Assembly: GCA_050115495.1 (NCBI GenBank)
Contig: JASFQK010000009.1
Span: forward strand, 97,163-161,162
Direction of reading: 5' to 3'
DNA length: 64,000 bases
Source: Phycisphaerae bacterium
Lineage (GTDB): Bacteria > Planctomycetota > Phycisphaerae > UBA1845 > Fen-1342
The notes beneath the pieces were generated by a model that saw only the letters and a list, made by a program, of their open reading frames with translations, ran no database searches and was not told the DNA's origin. Position numbers and translations under genes: made by a program. Of the stretch, positions 155-16,600 are shown in pieces. The first letter of the stretch is position 1, and the number at the start of each line of letters is the position of its first letter.

Positions 155-550
155 CTACTTGACGGCGAAGATGCCCGTCTTCTCGTCGTAGACGTACGTC
201 GTCCCGGTGGGCACGTACTGGTAGCCCCGCTTGCCGGTCTTCTTCCAGTTGGCGTCGGTGATGCCGCCCTCGATCACGTCGGCGAACAGCGGGTTCTTCT
301 CGGAGGCCTCCCCGTTCGCAGCCGAGTCCAGCGCGGTGGGATACGTGTCCTGGCCCTGGGCCAACGAAGTCATGTGCACGAGCTTGATCCCGGTGCGGAT
401 CGCCGACAGGGTCGCCTGCTCGGCGGCGTCCTGGGCCTCGGTGCGCATGCTGGTGAACTTGGGAGTGACCACAGCGGCCAGGAGGCCGATGATCACGATG
501 ACCATGACCAGCTCGACCAGGGTGAATGCTCGGTAGTTCCGCCGTTTCAT
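155..550 (-). CDS. Major type IV pilin, MshA-like
   Basis: Class III leader MKRRNYRA|FTLVELVMVIVIIGLLAAVVTPKF with E5; AAGGAG RBS upstream of ATG 550; last gene of the operon. Confidence 0.9.
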   Translation of the reverse strand: MKRRNYRAFTLVELVMVIVIIGLLAAVVTPKFTSMRTEAQDAAEQATLSAIRTGIKLVHMTSLAQGQDTYPTALDSAANGEASEKNPLFADVIEGGITDANWKKTGKRGYQYVPTGTTYVYDEKTGIFAVK

Positions 551-579
551 GTCGATGTTCTCCTTCTGGCAAGAGGGTA

Positions 580-1086
580 TTAGTCCGGAAGCTTGACCGT
601 GTAAGTCCCTCCGGGTTCTCGGATCGTCACGGAAGTGTCGTCGATGGCGATCACGGTAACGCCGTCGGCGAGCACGTCGCCCAGGCCGACCGGTCGCCCG
701 TTGAGCATGGCCAACGGGTTGTCGCCGGCGATGATGCCGGTCAGGGTATAGGCGCACGTCGTGGGGACTTCGCTGACCACAGGCTCCGTCGGAACCGTGT
801 AGTCTTCGGCCGGGGACGCCGCGCGATAGAAAGGATCGGCCGGCCAGTCCGTCACCTGGGCCACGATCTCGGCGAGCGAGTCGCCGACGGGCGCCGCGTC
901 GTCGGTACTGCAACCGTCGGCGGCAACGAGCGAGCCGAGCTCATCGTCGAGCGCCACGGCGGGGCCGGCCGGAGTGGCGCTGCTGGTGGCCGGCGGCCAT
1001 TGCGTCAGGCCGTACCACGCGCCGAGGGCCACGACCAGCACCCCGAAAACGAGTTTGCGCCACTGCTCAGCTCTCATCGTCCTCAT
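580..1086 (-). CDS. Pilus accessory protein (PilP/MshK/GspC-like)
   Basis: N-terminal TM, DPF motif, C-terminal LTGIIAGDNPLAMLNG...GD...VIAI beta domain; start may be 1077. Confidence 0.7.
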   Translation of the reverse strand: MRTMRAEQWRKLVFGVLVVALGAWYGLTQWPPATSSATPAGPAVALDDELGSLVAADGCSTDDAAPVGDSLAEIVAQVTDWPADPFYRAASPAEDYTVPTEPVVSEVPTTCAYTLTGIIAGDNPLAMLNGRPVGLGDVLADGVTVIAIDDTSVTIREPGGTYTVKLPD

Positions 1087-1693
1087 CTTCGTAGAAGCCC
1101 GCCTCTTCGCGCAGGAGTTCGGCGAGCGCGCCTTCCGGTACGAAAGGAACCTGCAAATCGAGCGAAACCTCCACCTCGGGCCCGTCGCCGGTCCACGTCG
1201 CGCGGACGATGCGCAGCGGCAGGTCCAGCGACGCCAGGCGATCCAGCCGACCGCTCAAACCGGCGTACGTACCGCGGCAGACGATGGTCGCCTGCTCACA
1301 GGCCAGCACGCCCGCTTCGGCGTCGGCGGCGTACAGCACTGGCTCGCCGAAGGTCAGCCGGGTCACGGTGACGCCGTCGCCCTGGAGCGTTTCGGCGAGG
1401 GTGTCGGACACGCGGTAGTGCTCGCGCCGCGGCAGCCACAGGTTGGCCACCGAGTCGCGGTTCTGATCGGCCAGTTCGTTCAGCCGCCGGGTGTGACCCT
1501 GGAGCACGGCCAGTTCGTCGACAGAGGCGCTGTACGAGCGGGCGTCGCTGCTGAGCTCGCTGGTCAGATGCCGCACGGCGACGGCCTGGGGCACCCAGGT
1601 CCACATGAGGTGGGCGAGGGCGGCGGCCGGGGCGGCGATGAACATCGCCAGCACGAGCATCGGGCGCAGTCTCAGCCAGTGGGTCACGTGCAT
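1067..1693 (-). CDS. PilO/MshJ-like inner-membrane alignment protein
   Basis: TM, coiled coil, then ferredoxin-like segment (CRGTYAGLSGRLDRL); position after PilM/N; GAGG upstream of 1693. Confidence 0.65.
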   Translation of the reverse strand: MHVTHWLRLRPMLVLAMFIAAPAAALAHLMWTWVPQAVAVRHLTSELSSDARSYSASVDELAVLQGHTRRLNELADQNRDSVANLWLPRREHYRVSDTLAETLQGDGVTVTRLTFGEPVLYAADAEAGVLACEQATIVCRGTYAGLSGRLDRLASLDLPLRIVRATWTGDGPEVEVSLDLQVPFVPEGALAELLREEAGFYEDEDDES

Positions 1694-1697
1694 ATCC

Positions 1698-3239
1698 TCA
1701 AGGCAGCGTGGCGTGGATCGCGATCGTCGCGGGTCCGTCGCGACCACTGCCGTCCACGTTGGTCACTTCGGCGCCGGTGCAGAACGCGGCGTCCGCCAGG
1801 TCGCGGGCCCAGCCGGCGGCCACGACTCCCGCCGCCGTCTCGCCGTGATATGCGGCCAGCAGGTCGATCGCCGGCGGCTCGGCGTCGGCGTCCAGGCTCG
1901 CCGACAGCAGGGTCACGTTGCCCGGCACGGTGGCGAACACAGCCCGAAAGAGGCCGATGGCGGGCAGCCGGCGTGGCAGGGCCTGCTGCAAGTGCGCGAT
2001 GCGGCCCACCTCTACCAGCAGCGCATCGTGCGCGGCGCGGTTGGCGGCCAGTTCGTTCGCGAGTTCTGCTGCCCGGTTTTCCAGCGTGCTGGCGGTGCGT
2101 TCGAGCTGCGTGCGCTGCGCTTCGGCCTGGCGGGGCACGGCGCTGTTGGCCAGGATGACCAGCATTGCGCAAGCCGCGGCCGCCAGGGCACGCCGCAAGC
2201 CGCGCTGCACGAAACGCTCCTCGGGTGGCCACAACTCCAGCGGGCCGTCGCCTGCGGGACGCGCCGTCCACATCGCCAGGCATTTCTGCTCGATGTCCTC
2301 GTCGGCGATCAGGGAGCGATCCAGGCCCAACTCGGCGACGAGGTGGGCACTCAAACCGGGCACGGGTGGCGCACACAGCACGCTCAGCGCCGGCCGAACG
2401 TCGGCCTCGCCCCAGTGCCGGGTCATCGTCTGCCCGGTTTCAGCTTGCAGCTTCTGTAGCGCCGGCGCGATCAGCGGCCACAACTGGTCGGCCCGCACCG
2501 TGTCCAGCACGGTATCCGTGCGGTCCACGGGCACGCCGACGTCGCGGACGAGCTGCTCGGCCTGCGGCGGCGACAGCGTCACCGGCCCATCCATGCTGAG
2601 GATCGGCCGCTGGTAGGCGGTCACGAAGTCGGCCCGCCCGAAGAGAATGTCGCGGCAGGCGACCAGGCGCCCGTCCTCGAAGAGCTGAATCGCCGCCGTC
2701 CGCTCGCCCAGCACGACCTGCATGGCCGGCCCGGAAGCAGCCGGCGCGTCGCACGCCGAGGTAAGCGCACGCACCGATTCCACGCGCAACCCGCTGCGTC
2801 GCAGGACGTAGAACAAGCCGCGCAGCAGGACGGCGTCCACGCCGGCGGCGAGCACCTGCGTGCTGCCGCTGTCGGCGTCGTGACCCACCACCTGCTCGGC
2901 CAGGCATAGCTCGCGTCCCGCCGCGTAAGCCGTCAGCCGCGTGCGGACGGCCTTGGTCCGATGGCGCGCCGACATGGGCGGCATCGACAGCGGATGAACG
3001 ACCGTCCCCGCGCCGGCGAAGTGCAGATGCGCCGGGCAGCCGGACAGCCCGTGCTCGCTCAGAAAGCGATCCAGCTCCGGCAGCCGCAACTGGCGCGGGA
3101 GCGCACCGACGTCGTACTCCACATGGCCGACGCCGAGCAGGCGCGCCTGTGGCGGCCGCCCTTCGACGGCGTATAGCGTTGCCGCCGCGCTGTCGGCGAC
3201 GATCACCAGCGCACGTTTTCCTGCACCCTGCTCGGGCAT
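1698..3239 (-). CDS. PilM-PilN-like fusion (MshI-like)
   Basis: Actin-like N-terminal region (AMQVVLGERTAAIQLFEDGRLVACRDI), then ELWPPEER, TM, coiled coil and VPGNVTLLS PilN-like domain; start uncertain. Confidence 0.7.
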   Translation of the reverse strand: MPEQGAGKRALVIVADSAAATLYAVEGRPPQARLLGVGHVEYDVGALPRQLRLPELDRFLSEHGLSGCPAHLHFAGAGTVVHPLSMPPMSARHRTKAVRTRLTAYAAGRELCLAEQVVGHDADSGSTQVLAAGVDAVLLRGLFYVLRRSGLRVESVRALTSACDAPAASGPAMQVVLGERTAAIQLFEDGRLVACRDILFGRADFVTAYQRPILSMDGPVTLSPPQAEQLVRDVGVPVDRTDTVLDTVRADQLWPLIAPALQKLQAETGQTMTRHWGEADVRPALSVLCAPPVPGLSAHLVAELGLDRSLIADEDIEQKCLAMWTARPAGDGPLELWPPEERFVQRGLRRALAAAACAMLVILANSAVPRQAEAQRTQLERTASTLENRAAELANELAANRAAHDALLVEVGRIAHLQQALPRRLPAIGLFRAVFATVPGNVTLLSASLDADAEPPAIDLLAAYHGETAAGVVAAGWARDLADAAFCTGAEVTNVDGSGRDGPATIAIHATLP

Positions 3240-3448
3240 AACCCCTGGCCTGCCAGCCGGGCGTTCAATCCGGACAACCGATCCGGAGAACGACCGCGCG
3301 GACACTTCTCCGCGAGGTTCATCGACGGGGCAGGCAGGCGTCGTGAGGGGTTGAAGGGAGCGGTGGGTCGCCGCGGCGAAGGCGGTCGGCGAAACATATC
3401 TTATCGCCACCCGCAGGCGGGTGGCGGTCGGTCCGGGCCCATAAGGAC

Positions 3449-3940
3449 TCAGGGGCCGAAGGGCGATGCCGGGCCCGGCCGGATCGACGGACCGGGCGGC
3501 GTGGGGCTGACGACCTTGGCGGTAATGCAGCTCCAACGCTCCTGGTAGACGCCGTCGCACACGCCCAGCGCCCGCAGCCGCAACTCGTACGGCCGCGGCC
3601 AGACCTCTACGGTGAACGTGGCGCCGGTCAGCTCGCCGGTGAACTGAAGCAACGGGTCGGACCCGGCCAGCCAGGTGTCCCCTTCCTTTTCGGTCACCAG
3701 GGCCAGGGCTTCCTGGAGCTTCGTGTCATCCAGGATCGTGCGCGTGGCCAGTTGCAGCGCTCCGAGCGCGGCGGCGTCGGCGCGCGCCCGCCGAACGGCG
3801 GCGGCGTCCACCGCCAGGTCCGCGGCGCGCATGCTGAGCACGGCGGATGACATTGTGGCCACGACCAGTAGCAGGACGACGGCGGTGACCAACGTGGCCC
3901 CCCGCCGCTGATAGTGGTTTGTTCTGCGTGTCATTTCCAC
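3449..3940 (-). CDS. Minor pilin, PilX/MshP/GspK-like
   Basis: QRRG|ATLVTAVVLLLVV leader lacking E5, typical of the PilX/GspK class. Confidence 0.75.
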   Translation of the reverse strand: MEMTRRTNHYQRRGATLVTAVVLLLVVATMSSAVLSMRAADLAVDAAAVRRARADAAALGALQLATRTILDDTKLQEALALVTEKEGDTWLAGSDPLLQFTGELTGATFTVEVWPRPYELRLRALGVCDGVYQERWSCITAKVVSPTPPGPSIRPGPASPFGP

Positions 3941-4560
3941 GGTTTCACGCTCAGTTGGATCTGCTGTTCGTAATTGGAGCGACGATAGATCTTGGGCGGC
4001 TTCGTGCTGGTCAGGGCCAGCGTCCGGCCGGCAAAAGTGCAGTCGGTCGGCACGGCGAGGCCCACGTACGTCTGGCCGTCGGGATCGCGCCAGTGATAGC
4101 GCAGGCCGACGAGCTGGTCGAATTGCGTTTTCTTCAGCGCGTTTACCGACGTGCCGTCGTCCAGCAGGTACGTGAAGGCAAGCTTGTGTACGGGCTCGGC
4201 CACCACCGCCCCCGCGTTGAGCGCCTTCGTAGCCTTCGTCGCCTGCTTGGTCATGCCGCCCACGTCGCTCTGGAGCAACTGCTCACCGGACGCGTACAGC
4301 TCCCATGAACCGATCGACAGCCCGGTCGACGCGGCCTTGTTGAGCGTACCGTAACCCTTCGGCGGATCGGCCTCGCGCCACAGCGACCCGGTGAGCTGCG
4401 CGATGCGCAACCCGCCGAGGTTCTGCGTCGTGAAGCACTGCAAGTCGGCCTCCGACTCCTGGTACGCCACGACGACCTGCGTCACCGGGATCAGCGCTCC
4501 GGCACAGATGATGCCGGCCAGCGAGATCGCCAGGATCATTTCCACGAGACTAGCGCTCAT
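3931..4560 (-). CDS. Minor pilin, PilW/MshO-like
   Basis: ASLVEMILAISLAGII pilin helix; position in the minor pilin series. Confidence 0.7.
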   Translation of the reverse strand: MSASLVEMILAISLAGIICAGALIPVTQVVVAYQESEADLQCFTTQNLGGLRIAQLTGSLWREADPPKGYGTLNKAASTGLSIGSWELYASGEQLLQSDVGGMTKQATKATKALNAGAVVAEPVHKLAFTYLLDDGTSVNALKKTQFDQLVGLRYHWRDPDGQTYVGLAVPTDCTFAGRTLALTSTKPPKIYRRSNYEQQIQLSVKPWK

Positions 4561-4575
4561 GTTCCGTCCCCATGG

Positions 4576-4992
4576 CTAAGTACCGGGCAGGTCCGCCACG
4601 AACGTCTCGACGCGCAGCGTGCTTCCGTCCGGCCCGGTAACGTCGACCCGCACACGCTTGATCCCCGAGCCCGGCTGCACCGTCAGGTAGTCGGCCGCCG
4701 ATACCTCGCGTACGGTCGTCACCCGCTGATAGCCGGCCAGTCCGCCGGCGTCCTTCTCGTCCGGGTAGTTGGCGGCGATCACGTGGGCGTAGCCACGCTT
4801 GGGGCTGGCCCGGTCGGCGTGCACCTCGTTCACCCGCTCGCCGGCGAGCTGCACGAGGTTCATGTTGATCATGGCCGCGCCCTGGGCGTGGGCCGCCGTC
4901 CCCAGTTGGATCATCAGTGGCGGTACGGCCAGGCCGAGAATGACGATGGCCAGGACGACCTCGATCAGCGACATGGCGCGGCGTCGTTTCAT
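4576..4992 (-). CDS. Minor pilin, PilV/MshD-like
   Basis: MKRRRA|MSLIEVVLAIVILG; KRVRVDV C-terminal strand. Confidence 0.85.
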   Translation of the reverse strand: MKRRRAMSLIEVVLAIVILGLAVPPLMIQLGTAAHAQGAAMINMNLVQLAGERVNEVHADRASPKRGYAHVIAANYPDEKDAGGLAGYQRVTTVREVSAADYLTVQPGSGIKRVRVDVTGPDGSTLRVETFVADLPGT

Positions 4993-5498
4993 GGCCAGAT
5001 AATCTCGCTGACGCCCGAGCCGCCGCGAACGACGATCTCCACGCCGCCGGCGAAGCGCAGACGGGCGTCTTTGGTCAGAGGTTTTCCATCAGGCTGAAGC
5101 GGGCAGCCGTCGGCCCCGAAACCGAGGGCGCTGCCGGCCAGCCCGGAGACGTCGTCGAGGTGGGTCCCGCCGCCGAGGTCCGTGATCGACACCTGCCAGG
5201 GCGCGTCGCTCAGGGGATGTGTCAGCGGCTTGGCGGCGATCTTGCCGCTGGCCGGCTGTGGTTCCTGCTCGAGCGTGTACTGCTGGCCGGCGACGTCGAA
5301 CGTGCAGAGCGTGCGGCAGGAGGAGAGCATCGCCGTCGCCCGGGCGTACGCCAGGTCGGCGCCGATGCGGCGAACGGCCGTGCTCGCCCGCCAGCTCTGC
5401 ACGCCGACCAGCCCGCTGATGGCGACCGTGGCCAGGACCAGGGCGATGGACATCGTCAGGACGAGCTCGACCATCGTCAGGGCGCGGCGCGCTTTCAT
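4989..5498 (-). CDS. Minor pilin, FimT/GspH/MshC-like
   Basis: MKARRA|LTMVELVLTM; DLAYARATAM and FGADGCP motifs; ATGA overlap with both neighbours. Confidence 0.85.
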   Translation of the reverse strand: MKARRALTMVELVLTMSIALVLATVAISGLVGVQSWRASTAVRRIGADLAYARATAMLSSCRTLCTFDVAGQQYTLEQEPQPASGKIAAKPLTHPLSDAPWQVSITDLGGGTHLDDVSGLAGSALGFGADGCPLQPDGKPLTKDARLRFAGGVEIVVRGGSGVSEIIWP

Positions 5499-6325
5499 GC
5501 CGAGGCTCCTGCCGGGATCGGCGCCGGGTTGCCGCAGGCCAGGCGCTCGGCGGCGCACTGAATGGCCGACGCGTCCACCTGCGCTGCGAGAGACAAGCTG
5601 GCCACCTGCAACGACAGGTGAGCCAGGCGGTTGACCAGCCGTGGCACGCCGCCTGACCACTCGGTGATGGCGGTCATCGCCTCGGCGGTGAAGACGTCGC
5701 CTTTGGGGTGCCCCGCGCTGCACAGGCGGTGCTGGAGGTAGTCCGGCACCTGGTCGGCGGCGAGCGGGCCGAGCGTCGCGCTGGCCAGCAGGCGCTGCTG
5801 TAGCCACGGCGGCCAGACCAGCTCGGACGCGGGCGCTTCGGCCGCCAGCAGCATGCAGACCCGCGCGCTCTCGACGTCCGCGTTCAACAGCCAACGCAGG
5901 CCGTCCAGATCCTCCCGGCTCGGGCTAGCCGGCCAGTCGTCCATCATGATGACGACGAAGCGGTTCTGCTCTTCGGCCTCGTTGACGGCCTGGAGAATGA
6001 CGTCCATGGCCACCGCCCCATCGGCCGGTACCGTCTGCGTCAGGTGATACGCCACGCGGCGGAGCAGGTCGACGCCCGTGCTGGACAGCTCGGGCACGAA
6101 GACCACCTGGTAACGCTCGCGGGGCAACTGCCGGCGGAGCGTCCGGAACAGAAGCGTCTTGCCACAACCGGTGTCGCCGGTGAGCAGCACCGGCTCGCCG
6201 CTGGCGCAGGCGGCGTACGTCATGGCCGCCAGGGCCTGCTCGTGGCGCGGGGCGGGGAAGTACGAGCGTGAGTCCGGTACTGCATCGAACGGGCTGCGTT
6301 GGAGGTGCCAGTAATCGAGATACAC
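5495..6325 (-). CDS. ExeA/GspA/MshM-family AAA ATPase
   Basis: MYLDYWHLQRSPF N-terminus, Walker A GDTGCGKT, SGGVPRLVN motif. Confidence 0.9.
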   Translation of the reverse strand: MYLDYWHLQRSPFDAVPDSRSYFPAPRHEQALAAMTYAACASGEPVLLTGDTGCGKTLLFRTLRRQLPRERYQVVFVPELSSTGVDLLRRVAYHLTQTVPADGAVAMDVILQAVNEAEEQNRFVVIMMDDWPASPSREDLDGLRWLLNADVESARVCMLLAAEAPASELVWPPWLQQRLLASATLGPLAADQVPDYLQHRLCSAGHPKGDVFTAEAMTAITEWSGGVPRLVNRLAHLSLQVASLSLAAQVDASAIQCAAERLACGNPAPIPAGASA

Positions 6326-6337
6326 GGTCGACCCTCG

Positions 6338-7564
6338 CTACGATTTGAGGTACATGGAGTTCATCTCCCACACGGGCAGGAAGATGGCCAGGGCCACCAG
6401 CAGCACGAACCCGCTCACGACCAACACCAGAGCCGGTTCGAGCGCCGTGGTCAGGATCTTGATGCGTACGCGCATCTCCTCCTCCAGGTGCGTCGCACAG
6501 GCACTCAGCATCTCGTCGATGCTGCCCGTGGCCTCCCCCACCGTCACCATGTGCTCGACCAGCTTGGGCAGCACGTGGCTGCCGGTCACCGTCGAGCTGA
6601 TCGAGCTGCCGGCGGCGACGTTGCGGCGAATCTGCGTGGCCAGGCGCTGCACGCGTCCGGGCAGCAACGCATCCTCCACGATCCGCAACGTCTCCAGCAG
6701 TGGCAGACCGGCCCCCTCCAACAACGCGATCATCCGGCAGAACTGGATGACCGTGGATAGGTAGACAATCCGCCCGATCATCGGCACCCGGGCCAGCAGG
6801 CGGGCCAACAACGTCTTCGTGGTCGACGAGCGTCGCGTCGCGACGATCACCGCCAACAGCACGCCCGCCCCCACGCCCAGAAAAACGCCGTGCTGCGTCG
6901 TGAAATCGCTCGCCGCCAGCAGGATGCGCGTCGGCAGTGGCAGCCGCTCGCCCATGTTGGCGAACAGGCTCGTGAACTGCGGCACGACGAAGATGAGCAT
7001 CGTCACGCAGGCCCCGATCAGCGTCATGATCACGATCGCCGGATAGGTCAGGGCGTTGATCAGCTCCCGGCGCAGGGCCGCCCGGCGTTCGAAATGCCGG
7101 ATCAGTTCGTCCATGGCCTCGGGGTGTACGCCGACGGCCTCGCCCGCTCGAATCGTGCCGATGTAGAACGCGTCGAACGTCTTCGGATGCGCCGCCAGCG
7201 CCTCGGAAAGCGTCGCCCCACGCTGAATGTCGGCGGCCAGGCTATCGAGCAACCGACGGTAAGCTCCCGGGCCGCTCGCCGCCCGCAGGATGCCCAACGC
7301 GTCCAGCAACGTGATCCCGCTCTTGAGCATCACCTTGAGCTGCCGGGTGAACTCGAGCAACTGCGACAGACGCAGCCGGATGCGCGACGTCGCCGCCCGG
7401 CCGGCGGCCGCAGCTCGCTTGTCCTTGGCCCGGCGGAGTGTCAGCGGCGTGAGCGACTGCTGTTCGAGCCGCCGCAGAGCGACCGCTTCCGACTCTTCTT
7501 CGAGCACACCCTCGGTGACGCGACCGGTGAGGTCGGCGGCGCGGTACATGAAAGCCGGCATCAC
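6338..7564 (-). CDS. pilC: Inner-membrane platform protein PilC/GspF/MshG
   Basis: FTRQLKVMLKSGI, ALTYP, LPLPTRIL, GEATG, LEP motifs. Confidence 0.95.
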   Translation of the reverse strand: MMPAFMYRAADLTGRVTEGVLEEESEAVALRRLEQQSLTPLTLRRAKDKRAAAAGRAATSRIRLRLSQLLEFTRQLKVMLKSGITLLDALGILRAASGPGAYRRLLDSLAADIQRGATLSEALAAHPKTFDAFYIGTIRAGEAVGVHPEAMDELIRHFERRAALRRELINALTYPAIVIMTLIGACVTMLIFVVPQFTSLFANMGERLPLPTRILLAASDFTTQHGVFLGVGAGVLLAVIVATRRSSTTKTLLARLLARVPMIGRIVYLSTVIQFCRMIALLEGAGLPLLETLRIVEDALLPGRVQRLATQIRRNVAAGSSISSTVTGSHVLPKLVEHMVTVGEATGSIDEMLSACATHLEEEMRVRIKILTTALEPALVLVVSGFVLLVALAIFLPVWEMNSMYLKS

Positions 7565-9786
7565 ACGCCCTCCTCAGTCGCCACGAGTGCCGAGGAGCCG
7601 GGCGAGGGTTGCAGCCACTTGCCGAGCAGCCGCTCGTAGTTGGCCACGTCGAAAGCGCCGTCGGGCTGGTCGCGGTGCGTGTGGTTCCGCCGGGCAAAGG
7701 CGCGGTTTGCGCCCGCCACGTCCTCGACGTAGCCGGCCACGCGCAGCAGCTCCGTGACCGACGTCAGCCCGGCGGCCACCTTGTCCATCCCGTCCTGAAG
7801 CAACGAGCGCATGCCCTGCGTCATCGCCAGCGCGGCCATCGCGCGGTCGTCCTGGCGGGCGAAGATCGCCCGGCGAATCTCGGGCGTGACCACGAGCAGC
7901 TCGAACACGCCCACGCGCCCCTCGAAGCCGGTGTTTCCGCAGCGCTTGCAGCCCACCGCTTCCATGTGCTGGACGCCGCCGAGCAGCACCCGCACCACCG
8001 ACTCGCTGCCTTCGGGTGGTTCCTCGGCCGGCCGGGCACAGTGCCGGCACAGCCGCCGGCACAACCGCTGGGCGAGCACGCCGATCAGCGACGAAGCCAC
8101 CAGGAAGTCCGGCACGCCCATGTCCAGCAATCGCATGGGGGCGGCCGCGGCCGTGTTCGTGTGCAGTGTGCTCAGCACGATGTGGCCGGTCAGGGCGGCC
8201 TGGAGGGCGATCTCCGCCGTCTCGCGGTCGCGAATCTCGCCGACCATGATGCAGTCGGGGTCTTGCCGCAGGATCGAGCGCAGTCCGGACTCGAAGGTGA
8301 GTCCGGCCTTGGGGTTCACGCCGACCTGGCGGACCTGCGGCAACCGCACTTCGACCGGATCCTCGAGCGTGATGATGCTCTGGCGCGTGCGGTCGAGGCG
8401 GGTGATGCCGGAGTAGAGTGTCGTGGTCTTGCCGCTGCCGGTCGGACCCGTGACCAGCAGCATGCCGTGCGGCAGATGCAGCAGCGCGTCGAATCGCTGG
8501 CGGCACTCGGCGTTCATGCCCAGCTCTTCCAGCGATAGAAGCCGCGATCCGGAACGCAGCAGGCGCAGCACGGCCGCCTCGCCGCCGGTGGACGGCAGCG
8601 TCGAGACGCGGATGTCCAGCTCCTCCTGGTCCACGGCCAGCTTGAAGTGGCCGTCCTGCGGCTGGCGCGTTTCGGCGATGTCCAGGTGAGCCAGCACCTT
8701 GATGCGTGAGATCATCGCCGGCAGGAGTGACTTCGGCGGGGCCGGTACCTCGCGCAGCACGCCGTCGATGCGGAAGCGCACGCGCAGGGCGTTCTCATCG
8801 GGGTCGATGTGCACGTCGCTGGCCCGGCTGCTGGCGGCCCGATCGAGCAGCACGTCGATCAGCTTCACGACCGGGGCGTCGGCGACGTCCTTGAGAATGT
8901 CGGTCCAGATGAGCTCGGACGAGGCGGCCTGTTCGCCGGGCTTCTCCTGGAAGCTGCCGTAGGCCCACTCGATGAGGTGGTGCACCTCACGCGGACTGGC
9001 CAGACACGAGTCCACCTCGCAGCCGGTCTGGAGGCGAATCTGGTCGAGCACGGCCAGGTCGAGGGGCCGGGTGACCGCGAGCGTGATGATGCGTTCGACC
9101 ACAAACAGCGGGAAGATGCCGTGGGCGCGGGCGACGTCCTCGCGGATGACGGAGCCGTTGTCGAGGCAGACGCGATACTCACCCGGCTCGACGAAGGCGA
9201 GGTCGTAGCCTTCGGCCTGGGCGGCGCTGAGCTCGCGCTGGCCGAGGCAGTGATTGTTGATCAGCCACTCGGCGGCGCGATCTTCGTCGCCAGCGGCTTG
9301 CGTCAGCGCTTTGCTGAGCACGTGGGAATCGACGAGGCCGGCGCGACCCAGGACGTTCATCCAGCGCGGTGCGGCCGGTCCGAGCTCCGCGGCCTGTGTC
9401 GCGGAGCGTTCCGGCGGCGGCGTCCGCGCCGGCGGCGCATGCAGGGCGAGCTCTTCGGCGTAGTTGTGGACGTCGTCGGCGAAGCGCACGCCGATGGCGT
9501 AGCGCGGCTCGCGGTCGATCATGCGGACGGAGAGTACCTGGCCCGGCAGCGTCTCCGGCGGGAGCTTGCCGACGGCGGGCGTGGTCACGGTGATCCGTGT
9601 CGCCCGCGGCAGGTACGTCGAGATTATCAGGCCGGCGCCGCCGCCGCTGACGTCGACGAGTCGGGCCCTCAACGTGTGTCCGCTGATGGGCGCGACCTGG
9701 CGGGCGACGTCCTCGTGAACGATGACGTCGACGCCGAGGTCGATGGCGTGCCGCGCGTACTGACGGTGTTGCCGGGGCTGGGCCAT
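7561..9786 (-). CDS. pilB: Pilus assembly ATPase PilB/GspE/MshE with N-terminal PilZ domain
   Basis: ASDVHI, GPTGSGKTTT, TLEDPVE, LRQDPD, GEIRD, TGH..LSTLH, CxxC..CxxC; PilZ motifs RQYAR and DVSGGG. Confidence 0.95.
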   Translation of the reverse strand: MAQPRQHRQYARHAIDLGVDVIVHEDVARQVAPISGHTLRARLVDVSGGGAGLIISTYLPRATRITVTTPAVGKLPPETLPGQVLSVRMIDREPRYAIGVRFADDVHNYAEELALHAPPARTPPPERSATQAAELGPAAPRWMNVLGRAGLVDSHVLSKALTQAAGDEDRAAEWLINNHCLGQRELSAAQAEGYDLAFVEPGEYRVCLDNGSVIREDVARAHGIFPLFVVERIITLAVTRPLDLAVLDQIRLQTGCEVDSCLASPREVHHLIEWAYGSFQEKPGEQAASSELIWTDILKDVADAPVVKLIDVLLDRAASSRASDVHIDPDENALRVRFRIDGVLREVPAPPKSLLPAMISRIKVLAHLDIAETRQPQDGHFKLAVDQEELDIRVSTLPSTGGEAAVLRLLRSGSRLLSLEELGMNAECRQRFDALLHLPHGMLLVTGPTGSGKTTTLYSGITRLDRTRQSIITLEDPVEVRLPQVRQVGVNPKAGLTFESGLRSILRQDPDCIMVGEIRDRETAEIALQAALTGHIVLSTLHTNTAAAAPMRLLDMGVPDFLVASSLIGVLAQRLCRRLCRHCARPAEEPPEGSESVVRVLLGGVQHMEAVGCKRCGNTGFEGRVGVFELLVVTPEIRRAIFARQDDRAMAALAMTQGMRSLLQDGMDKVAAGLTSVTELLRVAGYVEDVAGANRAFARRNHTHRDQPDGAFDVANYERLLGKWLQPSPGSSALVATEEGV

Positions 9787-9879: not shown

Positions 9880-10959
9880 CTAGCGACCCGGCTCCTCGCT
9901 CCAGCGGGCCCGTAGTTCCCGGACCACCCCAGGAGGAAGGGCCGCGGGTGAAGCCTCACCGAGAACCTCGGCCGCTCGCGCGGGCTGAGCCAATCGAGCG
10001 TAGCCGGCGGCCAGGGCCAGCCGGGCCGTACCGTTATCGGGGCTGATCTCCAGCGCCCGCTGCGCCGCCTGCACAGCTTCGGCGGGCCGGCCATCGGCCA
10101 GGGCAGCCGTCGCCAGCCCGACGTGCGCAGCGGCGCAATCGGGGTCTGTTAAGGTGACCAGCCGATAAGCCTTCGCGGCGGCGACAGTGTCGCCTGCGGC
10201 GAGCGCGCAGGCCGCCCAGCGCAGCCGCATCGTACGTCGCTGCTCGGGCTCGGTCGCGTCGGCAGCCAGGTCACGCCAGGCGACGGCCGCGTCGGTGTAC
10301 TGCCCGGCGCGCATCCGCGCTTCGGCCAGTTGCTGCCGCAACCCGACGTCGTCCGGATCATGCAGCAGCGCGGTGGACAGTTCGCGAATGGCGGCGTCGT
10401 GCTCGCCGACGTGCAGGAACAGACGTGCGGCCAGCGACTCGACTGCCGGTTCGCCGGGGAATCGAATCCGTTCGCGTTCGAGCGTCTCGACGGCCTGCGT
10501 CTCCGCTCCGGCGAGGACCAGCGTGTCCAGCCACGCGACGAGGCGCTGCGCTGTCGGTTCAAGCCGGTACGCCCGGGCGTACGCCGCGGACGCCTCCGGC
10601 CAGGAGCCGAGGCCCTCCTGGGCCACGGCCGTCAGCTCGTGAAACCCGGCCGAGTTGCGCTCGGCGTCGGGCACGCACTCAAGCTGCCGAAGCGCCGCGG
10701 CGTAGCGGCCTTCTTCGAGATCGATGCGGGCCAGCTTCAGGCTGGTGCGCTGCTCGCCGGCCTCGGTCTGGGCGGCCAGCAGGCTGCGGGCGCGGTCGAA
10801 GTGCCCGGCGTTGATCTGCTCGTCCGCCTGTTGCAGGGCCACGCGAGCGCGTGTGTCATCCCACAGGCGCGTCTCTCTGTGCTTCGGCGTCGAAGATGCG
10901 CAGCCCGCGAGCAACGCCGCCAGCAACCCGCAACAAACAACAATCGGCCAGCGCATCAT
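9880..10959 (-). CDS. TPR lipoprotein (pilotin/MshN-like)
   Basis: Lipobox LLAGC; multiple TPR-like helical repeats; overlaps the secretin stop. Confidence 0.8.
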   Translation of the reverse strand: MMRWPIVVCCGLLAALLAGCASSTPKHRETRLWDDTRARVALQQADEQINAGHFDRARSLLAAQTEAGEQRTSLKLARIDLEEGRYAAALRQLECVPDAERNSAGFHELTAVAQEGLGSWPEASAAYARAYRLEPTAQRLVAWLDTLVLAGAETQAVETLERERIRFPGEPAVESLAARLFLHVGEHDAAIRELSTALLHDPDDVGLRQQLAEARMRAGQYTDAAVAWRDLAADATEPEQRRTMRLRWAACALAAGDTVAAAKAYRLVTLTDPDCAAAHVGLATAALADGRPAEAVQAAQRALEISPDNGTARLALAAGYARLAQPARAAEVLGEASPAALPPGVVRELRARWSEEPGR

Positions 10960-12773
10960 GGCGCGTCTCCTGCATCGGGCCGCTGCGGTTCGTCAACCGG
11001 CGGTGCCACCTCGACCGGCGGCGTGGCCCCCTCCTCCGCCAGCATGTCCATAAGCAGGTTGCGGACGATGCTGTTCTCGGGTTCGATGGTCTCCTCTTCA
11101 CGCAGCCGGTCGCGCAGGCGGCTGGCCTCGGTGAAGTTGGGGTTGAGCGACAGGGCCAGGTCCAGATCCCACAGGGCCTTGCCCATATGCGCGGCGCGGT
11201 AGTGTTCGAGCGCCCAGTGATAGTGGGCCTGCGCCAGCCGTTCGCGGCCCCAGAATTGCAGGCCGCGGTGGGCCAGCGTGCGTCGCCGCTCGATCTCGTT
11301 CCAGGCCCAGGCGGAAGACTCGGAGTACTCGTCACCCTCGATGATGTGCGGCGTGATGAGCACGATCACCTCTTCCCGCAATGCCGCGTCGATCGTGCCG
11401 CGGAACAGCGGACCCACCAGCGGGAGGTTGCCCAGCCAGGGGATCTGCGTGCGGTCGGCCGAGGTGACTTCGCGGAACAGGCCGCCGATGACCAGCGTGT
11501 GCCCGTCGCGAACCATGACGTTGGCCGTCACTTCGGTCGTATCCTTGTACGGCAGGTTCTCCGGCGTCAGGCCGCCACTGCTGTCTTCGGGGTGAATGTC
11601 CATGCGGACGTAGCCGTCCCGACTGATGAACGGCCGGAAGAGAATCTGCGTGCCGGTCTCCAGGAACTCGACGCTCTCGATGGACGAAGTCTCGGTCACG
11701 GTCGTCGTCAGATAGCCGTCCTGGCGACCGACGATCACGCGGCCCGGTTGCTCGTTGACGGTCAGCACCTTCGGGTTGGCGACGATGGTCAGATCGACCG
11801 CCTCTTCCAGGGCCCGCACGAACACAGCGGCGCTGTTGGTGATGACGCCGATGCTCACGCCGCCCGGGGCGATGCCGGCACTCACGTCCGAGCTGGCCGC
11901 CGCCGTTTCGATGTCGAACTTGCGGGGCGGTACGGCGCCGGGCGTGATGTTCGTGCCGCCGACGCTGGTCGAGTTGATGGTGCGGAAGTCGATGCCGGCC
12001 AGGGCGTTGAAATCGACGCCCAGCGCGTTCACTTCGTCCAGCCGTACCCGCAGAATCAGCGCCTCGATCAGCACCTGCCGGGGACGAACGTCCAGCCGCC
12101 CCAGCACCTCGGCGACCTCGTCCAGCACCTCCGGGTAATCACGCACGATCAGGAACTCGCCGGCAGCGCGGCTCTTGCCTCCCAGGCCGGCGGCAAGCGC
12201 CTCGTCGAAGCTGTCGGCCGTCAGCGATACGCCCGGCACGGGCGCGTCCGCGGTGCCGACCACCTTCCCCACCGCACTGAGCAGCTCGGTGACGATCGGG
12301 AGAGCATCCTTGGCCGTGATGAAGCTGAGCTCGAAGATGCGCATCTCCGTCGCCCGGTTCGCCGCCAGCACGCCATCCCGTTCGCTCGGCAAGCACACGT
12401 AGATGAACTTGCCGCTGGCCAGCCAGGTGTAGCCGGCGGGCGTCACCAGGGCTTCCAGCGCCTCCTCAAACGAGACTTGGTACAGGTCGGCACTCACGGT
12501 GGCGGAAACGCTTTCGGTCACGCTGATGTTCCGCTGTGCCTGGTGGCTCAGCATGCGTAGCGCTTCCGGCAGCGGCATCCGCCGCAAGTGCAGGTTGAAG
12601 AGCCCGGCCTCGTCAACGGACACTTCCTGCGGACCGGTCGCCGCCGGCTCGACGGCGGGAGGCTGCGATTCCGGCTCCTGAGCGGTTACCGGCAAGGCCA
12701 ACCCCGGTCCGAGTAGCGCGGACAAGGCGAGCACGACGAACCCAAACGGCCGTCGCGATACCTGTATCAACAT
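10956..12773 (-). CDS. Outer-membrane secretin (GspD/PilQ/MshL family)
   Basis: Signal peptide, STN-like N0 domain, LDVRPRQVLIEA, ANPKVLT, LVIGGL, IPWLGNLPLVGPLF. Confidence 0.95.
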   Translation of the reverse strand: MLIQVSRRPFGFVVLALSALLGPGLALPVTAQEPESQPPAVEPAATGPQEVSVDEAGLFNLHLRRMPLPEALRMLSHQAQRNISVTESVSATVSADLYQVSFEEALEALVTPAGYTWLASGKFIYVCLPSERDGVLAANRATEMRIFELSFITAKDALPIVTELLSAVGKVVGTADAPVPGVSLTADSFDEALAAGLGGKSRAAGEFLIVRDYPEVLDEVAEVLGRLDVRPRQVLIEALILRVRLDEVNALGVDFNALAGIDFRTINSTSVGGTNITPGAVPPRKFDIETAAASSDVSAGIAPGGVSIGVITNSAAVFVRALEEAVDLTIVANPKVLTVNEQPGRVIVGRQDGYLTTTVTETSSIESVEFLETGTQILFRPFISRDGYVRMDIHPEDSSGGLTPENLPYKDTTEVTANVMVRDGHTLVIGGLFREVTSADRTQIPWLGNLPLVGPLFRGTIDAALREEVIVLITPHIIEGDEYSESSAWAWNEIERRRTLAHRGLQFWGRERLAQAHYHWALEHYRAAHMGKALWDLDLALSLNPNFTEASRLRDRLREEETIEPENSIVRNLLMDMLAEEGATPPVEVAPPVDEPQRPDAGDAP

Positions 12774-13163
12774 CTATGCATGCCTCCTGGCAACGGGACC
12801 GAGACCGGCGGGGCAGACCACGAGCGCGCGCCGCAGGCCGTCCGGTAACCGACGACATCCATCAGTCGCTATCGGAAACGGACCACGGAACCCCTTAGGC
12901 GAAGGCGACTTGGACGTCCTGGGAGCGCTCCCGGCGGCACTATCCCCCCTGCCAGCCGACCGCCAGCAGCGCGTTGTCCGTGACCGGTCCCGGCCACGGC
13001 TCCCCTGATTGACCGTCCGCTCCGCTAATTCTTGTCTGTCGGTGGCATTTGCGCTGGACGACGCCGCGTGTCGTATTGGAAGCTTCCTTTGAGGGGCCGG
13101 CTGACGCCGGTAACACGCGCGTGGGGCTCACCACAGGCACACAGCGTGGCCCCGAGGGACTGC

Positions 13164-13619
13164 ATGAGCCAGAACAAACCGAGCATGTCGAGGCGGCGGA
13201 CCCGGCGGAAGTCCGGGTCCGGCGGGACACAGTCCTCCGGGCTGATGAACATGCTGCGGCGTCGACGGGTGCAGAGCGGTCCGATACGAGCCCGTTGCCA
13301 TGACCGCCAAGTGTGGTGCGTGCCACTGCAGATGTGGGTGCTCGAACACTCGGGCAAGGGCGGCCGACGCGAGCGCCGGCTGGATGTGACGACCGTGGAC
13401 ATATCGGTCGGCGGGATGGCGTTCTATTATCGGCAGTACATCCACCCCGGCTCGACGATCAGGGCCCGTTTTGACGCGTTGCCGGGGAAACCGTACGTGA
13501 CCGCCGTCGTCCGCAACTGCACACTGATCGGCCCGGGCCGGCACCGCATCGGCATGGAGTTCATCGAGGTCCGGCGTGACGAGGGCGACCCGCCCATCCC
13601 CGACAGGGGCATCCTCTAG
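13164..13619 (+). CDS. Stand-alone PilZ-domain protein
   Basis: RCHDR (RxxxR), DISVGG (DxSxxG), IGMEF; start uncertain (13164 or 13245). Confidence 0.85.
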   Translation: MSQNKPSMSRRRTRRKSGSGGTQSSGLMNMLRRRRVQSGPIRARCHDRQVWCVPLQMWVLEHSGKGGRRERRLDVTTVDISVGGMAFYYRQYIHPGSTIRARFDALPGKPYVTAVVRNCTLIGPGRHRIGMEFIEVRRDEGDPPIPDRGIL

Positions 13620-16600
13620 GCTTTCGCCGGCTGAGCGCCATTTCCGGACCGCTGCACGAGGTGCAGCGTGCTGCACGCGATCATGAGCAGCAGGTCGATC
13701 CCCCCTACCAGGAACAGGTAGCGTACGACGGCGCCGGTGCCGAAGCCGTAGCTGTGCAGGCCGGTGCCCAGGACGTAGTTCACGCCGACGTACGTCATGA
13801 TGATCAGCCAGAAGGCCAGCACGCTCTTGAGGGCGGTGGCCAGGTGGCCGCGGCCAAGGACAAAGATGATGGCGGCGATCGTCGCTGCGGTCAGGGCGAC
13901 GACCTTGGTGGGCGTCAGCGGGGCGAGCAGGAGCACGATGATGACGAGCACCACGGCGCTGAGGATGCCGCCGAGGGCATAGGCCCAGCCGGGCGTCCGC
14001 TCGTGGTCGATGCGCACGTGCAGAATCGCCATGTAACCGAGGAAAGCGACCAGCGACCATACTTCCTTCGGATCCCAGCCCCAGTAGCGTCCCCACGATG
14101 AGGACGCCCACATGCTGCCGGTGATGATGCCCGCCAGCAGCAGCAGCGAGCCGACGAAGGCGTACCAGTAGTGCAGTTCGTCGATGGCTGTCGCCCAGCC
14201 GCGCCGGGCCGGGGCCACTGCCATCACGAACAACTGGGCATGGGCGATCAGCACCGCAATCGCCAGCACTGCGTACGAAGCCATGATGATCGGAACGTGG
14301 ATCGACATCCAAACGGTGTCGAGCAGCACCGGAACGATCGGGCGGACGAAGTGATCGAGCGGCAGCCGATCGGCGAGGATCAGGGCCAGGGCACCCATGG
14401 CCGACGCCGTCAGTGGCACGAAGCGGTCGCGTAGCAGGAACCGGGAGATGATGCCGATGGCGCCGGCTCCCCAGCTCAGGAAGAGCAGCGACTCGAACAT
14501 GTTCGCCGCCGGTATGCGGCCGGCGATCTGCCAGCGCAGCCACAGGCCGTACGTGAGCACGCCGAAGCCGACCACCATCGCCAACAAGGCCACGGCACGC
14601 AGGGTGACGGCGATCTGGTGGGCAACACTCTGCTTCCATATGCCGATGAGCAAGGCGATCACGGCAAGCACGACGCCGCCGGCCGCACCGTACGAAGCGA
14701 CACGGAAAGGCTGCAACCGGTTGTAGCGCAGTTCGAGCGCGATGCGCTCGGGCGTGGGTCGCTGGGCCGCGGGGAGTGCCGCGAGACGCTGGGCCAGTTG
14801 GACGGCAGCCGCCGCGAACGCCGGCGCATCGTCCGTCCCAAACGCTGCCCGCAAGGTCGTCCACGCCGCCGCGGCCGAGTTCGGTGCGGGCGGGTCGGCG
14901 GGCTGGGCCTCGTTGATCGTCTTCCACGCGGCGTTGACGCTGCTCGGATCGGGCACGAAGTGCAGCGCCTGGCCGTCGAAGACCCGCCGCAACGTGAGTA
15001 ACTTATCGAAGATGTCGTTGACCTTGGCCTCCAGCGGATCGAGCTTTCGGCCCCCGCCGGTCTCACGTATTTCCTGCGCGAGCACGTGCAGGTGGTTGTG
15101 CACGCTGAGTTCGTTGTACGAGAACATGGTCCGGTCGAGCGGCAGTTGGAGCTCCTGGCGCAGCTCGCGGTTGGCGATCGTGATGAGCGGCTCGCCTTCC
15201 CAGGTCTCGGGATCCAGCGACCAGGCCAGCAGCAGCCCGACCGGATCGTAATCCTCGAAAGACACCGTGCCCGTCACCGACTCGACGATGTCGCGGGCAC
15301 ACGTGTCCAGCGGCGGCCAGCGTCCGTCCCACTGGACGACCAAGCCGCGCACGCAGTCGTAGTCCAGCGACGCCGGCGGTGACGCGGCGGTGGCCGGCCA
15401 GGCAGTGGCCGACAGCACCATCCACAAGGCGGCCAACCCGGTTGCCCGAGCGGCTGCACGCGACGCCGCCGCGGGTCGGCGACGCCCTGCCAGACGCGTA
15501 GCGAGGACCAGCACCATGCCGATCATGACAGAGATGTAGCCGGCATAGACGACGGGCCGCCCCGGATCGCGCGCGACGGAGAGATAGCTAACGAATCCGC
15601 TCCCCTGCGGGGCGAAGCTCGACTGGTACAGCTCATAGCCGCCGTGGGCTACGGGACTGTTCATGCTGACCACGAGGTTCTGCTCGCGGCCGGTGACCGA
15701 ATCGAGAATGCGAATCTGACTTTCGTACGAGCGCGGGCGGTTGCTGCCGGGATACGTCCCGAGGCGAAAGCGGTCCAGCGTGACAGAGAAACCGAGCGGC
15801 ACCGTGCGGTCGTCAAAGCCCAGCTCGACAGGCGTGCCGCCGGCGACGATCCGCTCCGGCTGGTACCTTTGCACCCAGACCGAGACCGGCTGTTCCCCGC
15901 CTTCGACCACGAGCTCGACCGCCGGCATGCGGTCCTGGCGGATCGGCGTGACCGGGACGAGTTGCCAGTCCATGCGAGCATGCGGCACGAATCGCACGAG
16001 GCAAAGCGCGCGGTCGGCCCAGGGCGTCTCCACCGGCGTGCCAACGGGTAGCTCGCGCACACCCAGCGCCTGGCCATCGGCACTGAATCGGGCGTACACC
16101 GGCGTGCCCGGCGCCGCCAGGATCTCGATCGGCGTGGCGGCAACCGAGACCGACGGATGGTCGAAGGTCACCTGCACGTCGGGGATCAGGTCGGCGTTGT
16201 GCCGGAAGCCGGGGAAGCGGGCGAAGCAGAAGCGCTGCTCGCGTTGCGTCGGGCCGATGACCTCGACCTCGATCGCCGGGTTGACCGGCTCGTTCGACGC
16301 GTTGCGCAGCTCGCGATCCGCGCCGACGGTGGCGTGCGGCATGTAACGCAGCACGTGCAGCGTGTAGCCGGTGTCGCCGAGCGGCACCTCGCGCCGCAGG
16401 CACCCGGCCAGCGGCAGGTCGAAACTGGTTTCGCCGCAGGTGACGTGTACGGTGCCCATGCCCGCGGGTTGGCTCGACGCCGACTCGTGCACGAGGCGGG
16501 CGAGCGACGCCGCATCGGGCAGCCAGCGGAAGCCGGCCATCGTCCCGCCGAGCGCGGCGGGATGATCCGGAAACGCCCAGACCAGCCCGTCGTCGCCCGC

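Follow-up and report, generated by a model that had tools for sequence, protein, structure and literature searches.

The window analysed here, a 64,000-nucleotide stretch of contig JASFQK010000009.1 from a Phycisphaerae bacterium, contains a minus-strand gene of 741 residues within a type IV filament gene cluster (Table 1). By Pfam the gene reads PilZ-MshEN-T2SSE. The PilZ match (PF07238) covers residues 6–107, with 28.7 bits against a cut-off of 22.5, the MshEN match (PF05157) residues 194–278, with 45.2 bits, and the T2SSE match residues 302–682, with 443 bits. The core carries the Walker A sequence GPTGSGKT and a four-Cys motif, and its top structural matches are GspE and PilB. The protein is an assembly ATPase of the PilB/GspE (T2SSE) type, which reaches the cut-off of neither NCBIfam TIGR02538 for PilB (526 bits, cut-off 676) nor TIGR02533 for GspE (536 bits, cut-off 630).

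The N-terminal domain has the signature of canonical PilZ receptors of cyclic di-GMP (c-di-GMP). RxxxR is present in the N-terminal loop as R8-Q-Y-A-R12, [D/N]hSxxG as D45-V-S-G-G-G50, and the third signature as G99-V-R-F102. An earlier note, made from the sequence alone, had called this signature complete, and the Pfam score and the canonical fold of the model described below agree. MshE-type motors bind c-di-GMP through their MshEN domain, using two RLGxxLxxxG...LxxxLxxQ motifs (PMC5013675). When the MshEN domain is read in the register of the 24-residue motif defined in that paper, both motifs are decayed, and RLG is lost in both repeats as the note had said. Motif 1 reads R141-W-M and has Ala164 in the Gln slot (Q163 sits one residue early), while in motif 2, which reads R170-A-A, the turn-Gly slot is taken by His, the last-Leu slot by Gln190 and the Gln slot by Gly193. 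XpsE, which does not bind c-di-GMP, shows changes of the same kind (PMC5013675).

The ATG start is at 9786, with GGAG 4 nt 5′ of it, and the starts of relatives coincide with it. The earlier note had allowed for a true start downstream of the PilZ domain. None was found: a scan of codons 105–142 for in-frame ATG, GTG or TTG gave nothing, so that a downstream or hidden start in the linker was rejected. The linker between PilZ and MshEN contains no ATGA. The G+C content at third codon positions is 0.83–0.93 per 30-codon block over residues 1–150, which is coding-like across PilZ and linker.

Table 1. The fusion gene, its domains and motifs, and the other genes of the filament cluster (positions are those of the window).
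Feature	Position	Strand	Basis
PilZ-MshEN-T2SSE fusion ATPase gene, 741 residues, PilB/GspE/MshE family	7561..9786	-	Open reading frame list, Pfam
Canonical PilZ domain, residues 6–116; separate gene in most relatives	9439..9771	-	Pfam, model, structural matches, split loci
RxxxR motif, R8–R12	9751..9765	-	Sequence; both Arg in 45/45 aligned pairs
[D/N]hSxxG motif, D45–G50	9637..9654	-	D/N 44/45, final Gly 45/45
Pro/Ala-rich linker, residues 117–139; site of the stop/start overlap in split relatives	9370..9438	-	
MshEN_N (ND0), four-helix bundle, residues 141–193; both c-di-GMP motifs decayed (RWM, RAA)	9208..9366	-	
MshEN_C (ND1), residues 194–278; clade-conserved N210, F225, F228, Q249, L271; candidate PilZ docking surface (inferred)	8953..9207	-	
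T2SSE ATPase core, residues 302–682; Walker A GPTGSGKT, four-Cys motif	7741..8883	-	
C-terminal FDxxxYExLLxxW motif, family-specific, predicted helix	7615..7653	-	Homologue comparison, model
Secretin (STN, Secretin_N, Secretin)	10956..12773	-	Pfam, NCBIfam
Tetratricopeptide repeat (TPR) protein, lipoprotein-like N-terminus	9880..10959	-	Pfam
PilC/GspF platform, two T2SSF domains; overlaps the ATPase stop	6338..7564	-	Pfam, NCBIfam
ExeA-like AAA ATPase (AAA_22)	5495..6325	-	Pfam, NCBIfam
Four pilin-like open reading frames: one above the N-methylation cut-off, two with weak XpsH/GspK-type matches, one with no match	3449..5495	-	
Three open reading frames in the PilM/N, PilO and PilP places; labels from position and size only, no family match	580..3560	-	Kept in related loci
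Pilin with N-methylation motif (TIGR02532, 22.6 vs 16.3 bits), last gene of the cluster	155..559	-	

Relatives of the gene were collected from both of its ends. A search with the ATPase N-domain at order level matched 32 of 279 genomes, and 20 of the 31 loci other than our own were examined. In all 20 a pilZ gene, or a piece of one, adjoins the ATPase. It is fused in three (L031, L033, L040) and split in 17, where the pilZ reading frame lies directly upstream; it is whole in 15 of these, only its 3′ half is readable in L036, and in L037 it is cut by the contig end. All 13 split junctions examined overlap, eight by ATGA and five by 11 nt (three of these five starts are GTG and inferred), and no slippery sequence shared by the 13, of the kind needed for programmed frameshifting, was seen by eye. 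A profile search from the PilZ side found 40 places in 39 of 401 genomes of the class. Among the best 30 of the 40, the ATPase is directly downstream in 30 of 30, with three fused and 27 split, in five families; of the weaker matches, that in genome G058 was examined as well (see below). The Pfam architecture search proposed in the earlier note found PilZ, MshEN and T2SSE together here and in 6 of 20 homologous proteins (precomputed matches). Because these six proteins and three of the 20 loci are also fused, the fusion is not peculiar to this assembly. The gene pair is conserved, spans several families of the class and is fused in a minority of cases.

Of the 72 genomes of the family, the ATPase occurs in 13, the PilZ in 13, both in 12 and neither in 58, so that the pair co-occurs in 12 of the 13 genomes holding the ATPase. 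The unpaired genomes are G066, where pilZ is cut by the contig end, and G058, where a truncated pilZ is followed directly by exeA. This last locus (L203, 1441–2590, +) appears to be decaying: the 5′ half of pilZ is joined to exeA, and the ATPase and platform genes are missing. Another decaying locus is L031 (8064–9122, +) in genome G075, where the fused ATPase is cut near residue 315 by unrelated DNA. Neither ATPase nor pilZ was found in any of six genomes of the same genus (84–93% complete). The locus is therefore patchy, both across the family (13 of 72) and within the genus (0 of 6), which suggests that the whole cluster is frequently lost or transferred.

Among 401 genomes sampled across the phylum, two from outside the class have the pair, one split (L082) and one fused (L083). 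In 80 general PilB/GspE loci, no ATPase had a neighbouring pilZ of this subfamily, although the profile would miss distant PilZ genes. In one of those 80, L179 (2456–3670, +) from Alloalcanivorax, an unrelated REC-PAS-PilZ gene lies directly 5′ of a GspE-like ATPase. Five near-outgroup genomes were searched for a trans-acting member of the subfamily and none was found; the search gave three weak matches in two genomes (20–36 bits), all to general PilZ domains and including one C-terminal fusion.

In the trees, from which same-genome duplicates were dropped, the pilZ-linked ATPases form one clade, with Shimodaira–Hasegawa (SH) support of 98 when the N-domain is included and 92 in the SH-like approximate likelihood ratio test (SH-aLRT) on the core alone. 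The FastTree version of the core-only tree leaves this clade unresolved (L031 and P0026 were dropped from the core-only tree, and L040 was shortened). Fused rows occupy five places, equivalent to five changes over 24 labelled rows: a main group, P0005, L031, P0006 and L083. The main group consists of the window protein, L033, L040, P0002, P0003 and P0007, with SH-aLRT 100. An approximately unbiased (AU) test, run after a tree had been seen, rejects (p 0.006) the grouping of the family's nine fused rows in a single clade. The true fusions may be fewer than five, given that L031 is broken and that P0006 and P0005 are known as proteins, without DNA. It is concluded that fusion arose more than once, because the window group and L083 still make two.

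These results also bear on whether the fusion exists at all. An assembly frameshift joining two overlapping genes, or a true start downstream of PilZ, would be in keeping with the fact that the fusion is known here from the assembly alone, and with the doubt over two fused relatives, L031 and P0006 (the latter sits beside the split locus L034). We regard it as highly improbable, since six fused proteins from separate assemblies fall in the one strongly supported main group, the five members that were measured have linkers of 41–42 residues (from the PilZ strand to PxW), and the linker here, with neither in-frame start nor ATGA, is coding-like throughout.

The earlier note had proposed that one c-di-GMP receptor of the motor was replaced in cis by another. 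Part of this holds: the motor lacks the motif, an intact canonical PilZ is attached to it, and the ancestor probably had the MshEN motif, because in the wider ATPase clade (SH 98) the Syntrophaceae ATPase L151 keeps RLG/KLG. The part that does not hold is replacement by fusion. PilZ and ATPase are mostly two overlapping genes, the split forms are already without the motif, and the fused forms are scattered. Both MshEN motif glycines are kept in none of 54 clade rows, split or fused, as against 20 of the 31 background ATPase rows in which both slots align. The wider clade also contains eight ATPases (L084–L090 and L096) whose motifs are decayed and which have no pilZ in the roughly 1.5 kb upstream; they were chosen with a profile of decayed domains, so the sample is biased. 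MshEN motif decay occurs as well in X. citri PilB and in XpsE (PMC8389850, PMC5013675). Decay alone does not therefore indicate a swap, since it is common in PilB/GspE and is found in outgroups with no adjacent pilZ. The decay is not tied to the gain of pilZ, and both preceded fusion.

A scheme in which an MshE-type ATPase acquired PilZ by fusion and the new domain took over from the MshEN site in cis, fusion preceding or causing the decay of the motif, is consequently very unlikely and in our view largely refuted. It would fit the presence of the intact-motif relative L151 in the wider clade, and also the observation that fused rows of the main group lack the motif-2 glycine kept by most split family rows (RAA against RAG). 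However, in every family sampled most forms are split, and these are already motif-less, the AU test stands against one clade of the nine fused rows, and an ancestral fusion would need repeated splits, each restoring an overlapping stop and start. The idea that fusion caused the MshEN decay was rejected on the motif-less split forms and the AU test.

The ligand motifs of the PilZ are strongly conserved. In 45 PilZ–ATPase pairs, with identities down to 18%, RxxxR is present in 45, the D/N in 44 and the full motif in 41. Binding of c-di-GMP by the PilZ is likely on the strength of these motifs. The motor-linked PilZ proteins form a subfamily of their own, marked by an additional Q-containing segment and the motifs FLP(R/K) and MxDxxPxY. 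A sequence search of solved structures with the motor-linked PilZ gave no match (best E 0.07).

AlphaFold2 was used to predict the structure of residues 1–282, from an alignment of 59 rows of which 11 are fused and 48 cover one domain. The weights used predate the 2021 X. citri complex. The prediction was confident and consistent, with a pLDDT (predicted local distance difference test) of 94.8, a pTM (predicted template modelling score) of 0.89 and five models within 1.3 pLDDT of one another. For the full-length chain the domains are confident, with pTM 0.45. Both folds were recovered, with canonical PilZ domains and MshE/PilB as their best structural matches. The PilZ model has a full six-stranded barrel, N-terminal loop and C-terminal helix, following the definition of the canonical fold in 10.1101/814665. 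A VIA-align search with the two-domain model gave c-di-GMP-binding PilZ domains as the best matches to residues 8–119 (Z 10.5–11.4), led by BcsA (4P00; Z 11.4, root-mean-square deviation (rmsd) 2.5 over 99 aligned residues), PA0012 (Z 11.3) and PP4397 (Z 11.1). Residues 140–276 match MshE (5HTL; Z 12.5, rmsd 2.3, 134 aligned) and X. citri PilB (7LKM; Z 12.3, rmsd 3.6, 144 aligned). By single-domain profile score 7LKO is narrowly the best, with 81.1 bits against 78.4 for M. xanthus PilB.

In the model of residues 1–282, PilZ is predicted to take a single orientation on MshEN. A pTM of 0.89 would not be expected of two domains, of 110 and 140 residues, that were independent of each other, and for this reason their mutual position is probably fixed. 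In ND1, F228 aligns with F101 of X. citri PilB, a residue of the PilZ pocket, and is present in 54 of 54 clade rows against 14 of 84 others. Other clade-specific conserved ND1 residues are N210 (53/54), Q249 (53/54) and L271 (54/54). The MshEN domain thus seems, from the model, to have been kept as a docking site rather than as a relic.

On balance, we favour a reading in which the PilZ is a dedicated subunit that docks on the MshEN domain, binds c-di-GMP by its own motifs and moves MshEN, so that assembly is switched on at high c-di-GMP. The stop/start overlap would supply about one PilZ per ATPase subunit, a ratio which fusion would fix. The PilZ, encoded in most relatives by the separate overlapping gene, is predicted to dock on the MshEN domain of the ATPase; c-di-GMP would then bind to it, order the RxxxR loop and shift the MshEN domain, in the manner of ligand binding in MshE-type motors. 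By analogy with V. cholerae MshE (PMC11656802), high c-di-GMP would most likely switch filament assembly on. The sensor would have been handed over in trans within the operon, deep in the clade, and fusion would have come later, more than once.

Several observations weigh against this reading. The set of 45 pairs was partly collected with a motif pattern and with a profile from motif-bearing sequences, which favours intact motifs. The PilZ of L082 has Gly in the D/N slot, and three fused proteins, L083 (829–3186, +), P0026 and P0100, have a PilZ-like part that has lost both motifs. In these three the PilZ-like part is no longer recognised by Pfam, the MshEN motif is decayed too, and the F(L/F/Y)PK and MxxxxPxY segments are kept; the pairing can therefore persist without a ligand site. 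The docking comes from a single-chain model without an unrelated-partner control or interface read-out, and the covalent linker can favour contact. X. citri PilZ (3CNR) is a structural match with Z of only 5.8, further away than canonical PilZ, so that the interface may differ. R103 and F108 of the X. citri PilZ interface are not kept (V230 and T235 here), and F228 is also found in 12 ATPases with no adjacent pilZ, eight with decayed and four with intact motifs. Finally, c-di-GMP left the ATPase rate unchanged in C. perfringens PilB2 and in the X. citri complex (PMC11656802), and the output step is consequently uncertain even in studied systems.

Some of these points would be met if the PilZ, like that of X. 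citri, served chiefly to fold or stabilise the N-domain of the ATPase, as a structural cofactor whose ligand role is absent or secondary. The retention of family segments in the motif-less fused proteins agrees with this, as does the docking of the domains by AlphaFold2 without ligand, and X. citri PilZ raises the solubility and rigidity of PilB without binding c-di-GMP (PMC11656802). It nevertheless leaves unexplained why RxxxR is kept in every pair, and the full motif in 41 of 45, over several families, and why the fold is canonical and includes the N-terminal loop that X. citri PilZ lacks (10.1101/814665). We therefore judge it unlikely.

The tethered PilZ might also relay c-di-GMP to a PilM-like protein, the platform or the ExeA-like ATPase, or c-di-GMP might inhibit assembly, the core not being the target. 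The full-length model leaves the N-terminal module unfixed on the core, canonical PilZ adaptors act on varied partners (10.1101/814665), and a second conserved face of the X. citri N-domain has been proposed to bind PilM (PMC8389850). Yet in every locus examined pilZ is coupled and fused to the ATPase gene only, and no result here indicates another partner, which makes a relay about as improbable as a purely structural role. Docking on the motor's own MshEN domain, with c-di-GMP bound by the PilZ, remains the reading that we prefer.

The rest of the cluster runs from a secretin gene to a pilin gene on the same strand (Table 1). The secretin scores 108 bits against the MshL model TIGR02519 (cut-off 250), and higher against the GspD and PilQ models, also below their cut-offs. 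Because no NCBIfam equivalog cut-off is reached (GspE, PilB, MshL), the cluster was classed from sequence as a type IV filament system, its subtype being left unassigned. Genes for an ExeA/MshM-like ATPase and a TPR/MshN-like protein adjoin the ATPase. The gene set (secretin, TPR, ExeA-like ATPase, ATPase, platform, pilins) presumably resembles that of msh loci, as a likeness rather than an established orthology. Whether split or fused, almost every complete ATPase of the family ends, after a variable linker, in the FDxxxYExLLxxW helix. It is not present in the other families examined, and is possibly a docking peptide.

A stand-alone second PilZ gene (13161–13616, +), with RCHDR, DISVGG and a Pfam score of 30.5 bits, is divergent from the secretin gene. 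This gene falls outside the motor-linked subfamily, and a homologue occupies the same place in L033. Its stop is overlapped by a 1194-residue fusion of ResB-like and cytochrome c assembly (CcsA) parts (13616–17200, −).

The host genome (5.97 Mb, 92% complete) has eight GGDEF matches, five with GG[D/E]EF in the matched stretch, and seven PilZ matches, from which we conclude that c-di-GMP signalling is in place. There are 14 T2SSE matches, of which five are PilB/GspE-like and one (C35) has both MshEN motifs intact. A degenerate GGDEF gene directly precedes this last ATPase (C35, 37395–39960, +). No FimX-like gene is present in the cluster, to which the search for FimX was confined.

A search of full-text literature, which leaves most subscription journals uncovered, yielded no paper describing this PilZ–ATPase pair. 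No PilZ fusion is named in the accessible text of PMC5013675, including a term search of two supplements, and no PilZ–ATPase fusion is mentioned in the accessible text of two PilZ surveys (10.1101/814665, 10.1101/2020.02.11.943704), whose supplements could list the architecture; it is visible in precomputed Pfam matches. The pair is thus a real, conserved and apparently undescribed arrangement, in which a canonical PilZ subunit serves a motif-less motor of PilB/GspE type, mostly as a split pair and here as a fusion.

How PilZ and c-di-GMP act on PilB, including the stoichiometry and the retention of PilZ through the ATP cycle, is listed as an open question in PMC11656802. A natural fusion fixes 1:1 stoichiometry and provides a ready construct for structure and assays. 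Known motors take c-di-GMP either through MshEN or through a ligand-blind PilZ and FimX; a canonical PilZ on a motif-less motor merges both routes. Annotation is also corrected, in that a decayed MshEN motif need not mean that a motor ignores c-di-GMP. The immediate reach of the result is limited, because these organisms are known for the most part from assembled genomes.

It is possible, and only a little short of probable, that Planctomycetota hold an undescribed third c-di-GMP wiring of a type IV filament motor, with a ligand-binding PilZ, one per protomer, docked on a decayed MshEN. If so, the clade would display a whole series, namely intact MshEN outgroup, split canonical PilZ, fused canonical PilZ and fused motif-less PilZ, and would serve as a model for a possible origin of the ligand-blind PilZ cofactors found in Pseudomonas and Xanthomonas. 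It would also offer a single-chain system for solving PilZ control of the PilB hexamer.

Among known systems, MshE, M. xanthus PilB and T. thermophilus PilF share the order MshEN_N, MshEN_C and ATPase core. The MshEN fold is present here, as a four-helix N subdomain and an alpha/beta C subdomain resembling 5HTL, and c-di-GMP input would likewise be at the N-terminal end of the motor. Unlike in those motors, both 24-residue motifs are decayed, so the two RLG motifs of the c-di-GMP-binding MshEN group are absent, and the likely sensor is the added PilZ. With the canonical PilZ receptors BcsA, YcgR, PP4397, PA0012, Alg44 and MotI, the PilZ shares the six-stranded barrel, the C-terminal helix, RxxxR and [D/N]hSxxG; it differs from them in forming its own subfamily, linked to an ATPase of pilus type.

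A canonical PilZ joined to a T2SSE ATPase is also seen in two Planctomycetota genomes outside the class, where GspE-like ATPases carry a C-terminal PilZ and are followed by a platform gene: L228 (3191–5488, −) and L229 (3699–5906, −; MshEN-T2SSE-PilZ). There the PilZ is at the opposite end and of another subfamily; within the reach of the literature search, this arrangement too appears to be unpublished. Because these ATPases fall in a different clade, canonical PilZ appears, on sequence grounds, to have been attached to such motors at least twice independently.

The closest comparison is with the X. citri PilB(ND0/ND1)–PilZ–FimX complex (7LKM/7LKO) and with P. aeruginosa PA2960. There too a PilB N-domain without the c-di-GMP motif has a PilZ-family partner, which binds it chiefly through ND1, and c-di-GMP is read by FimX (PMC8389850, PMC11656802). 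The earlier note had set its fusion against PilZ proteins acting on PilB in trans; the real contrast is that those PilZ proteins do not bind c-di-GMP (PMC8389850). They lack the ligand motifs and the full barrel, whereas the PilZ here is canonical with its motifs intact. The loss of the motifs and of the N-terminal loop that marks the PA2960/XAC1133 type is not seen, and the structural match is poorer (Z 5.8 for 3CNR against 11.4 for canonical PilZ). Moreover, the gene overlaps or is fused to that of the ATPase, and its product has no conserved C-terminal Met motif. On the motor side the equivalent of F101 is kept and the N-domain fold matches 7LKM, while the equivalents of R103 and F108 are not kept. 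The system belongs neither to the PA2960/XAC1133-type PilZ group nor to the c-di-GMP-binding MshEN group. By analogy, it likely works like the X. citri PilZ–PilB pair, with the ligand site on the PilZ itself, so that no FimX would be needed.

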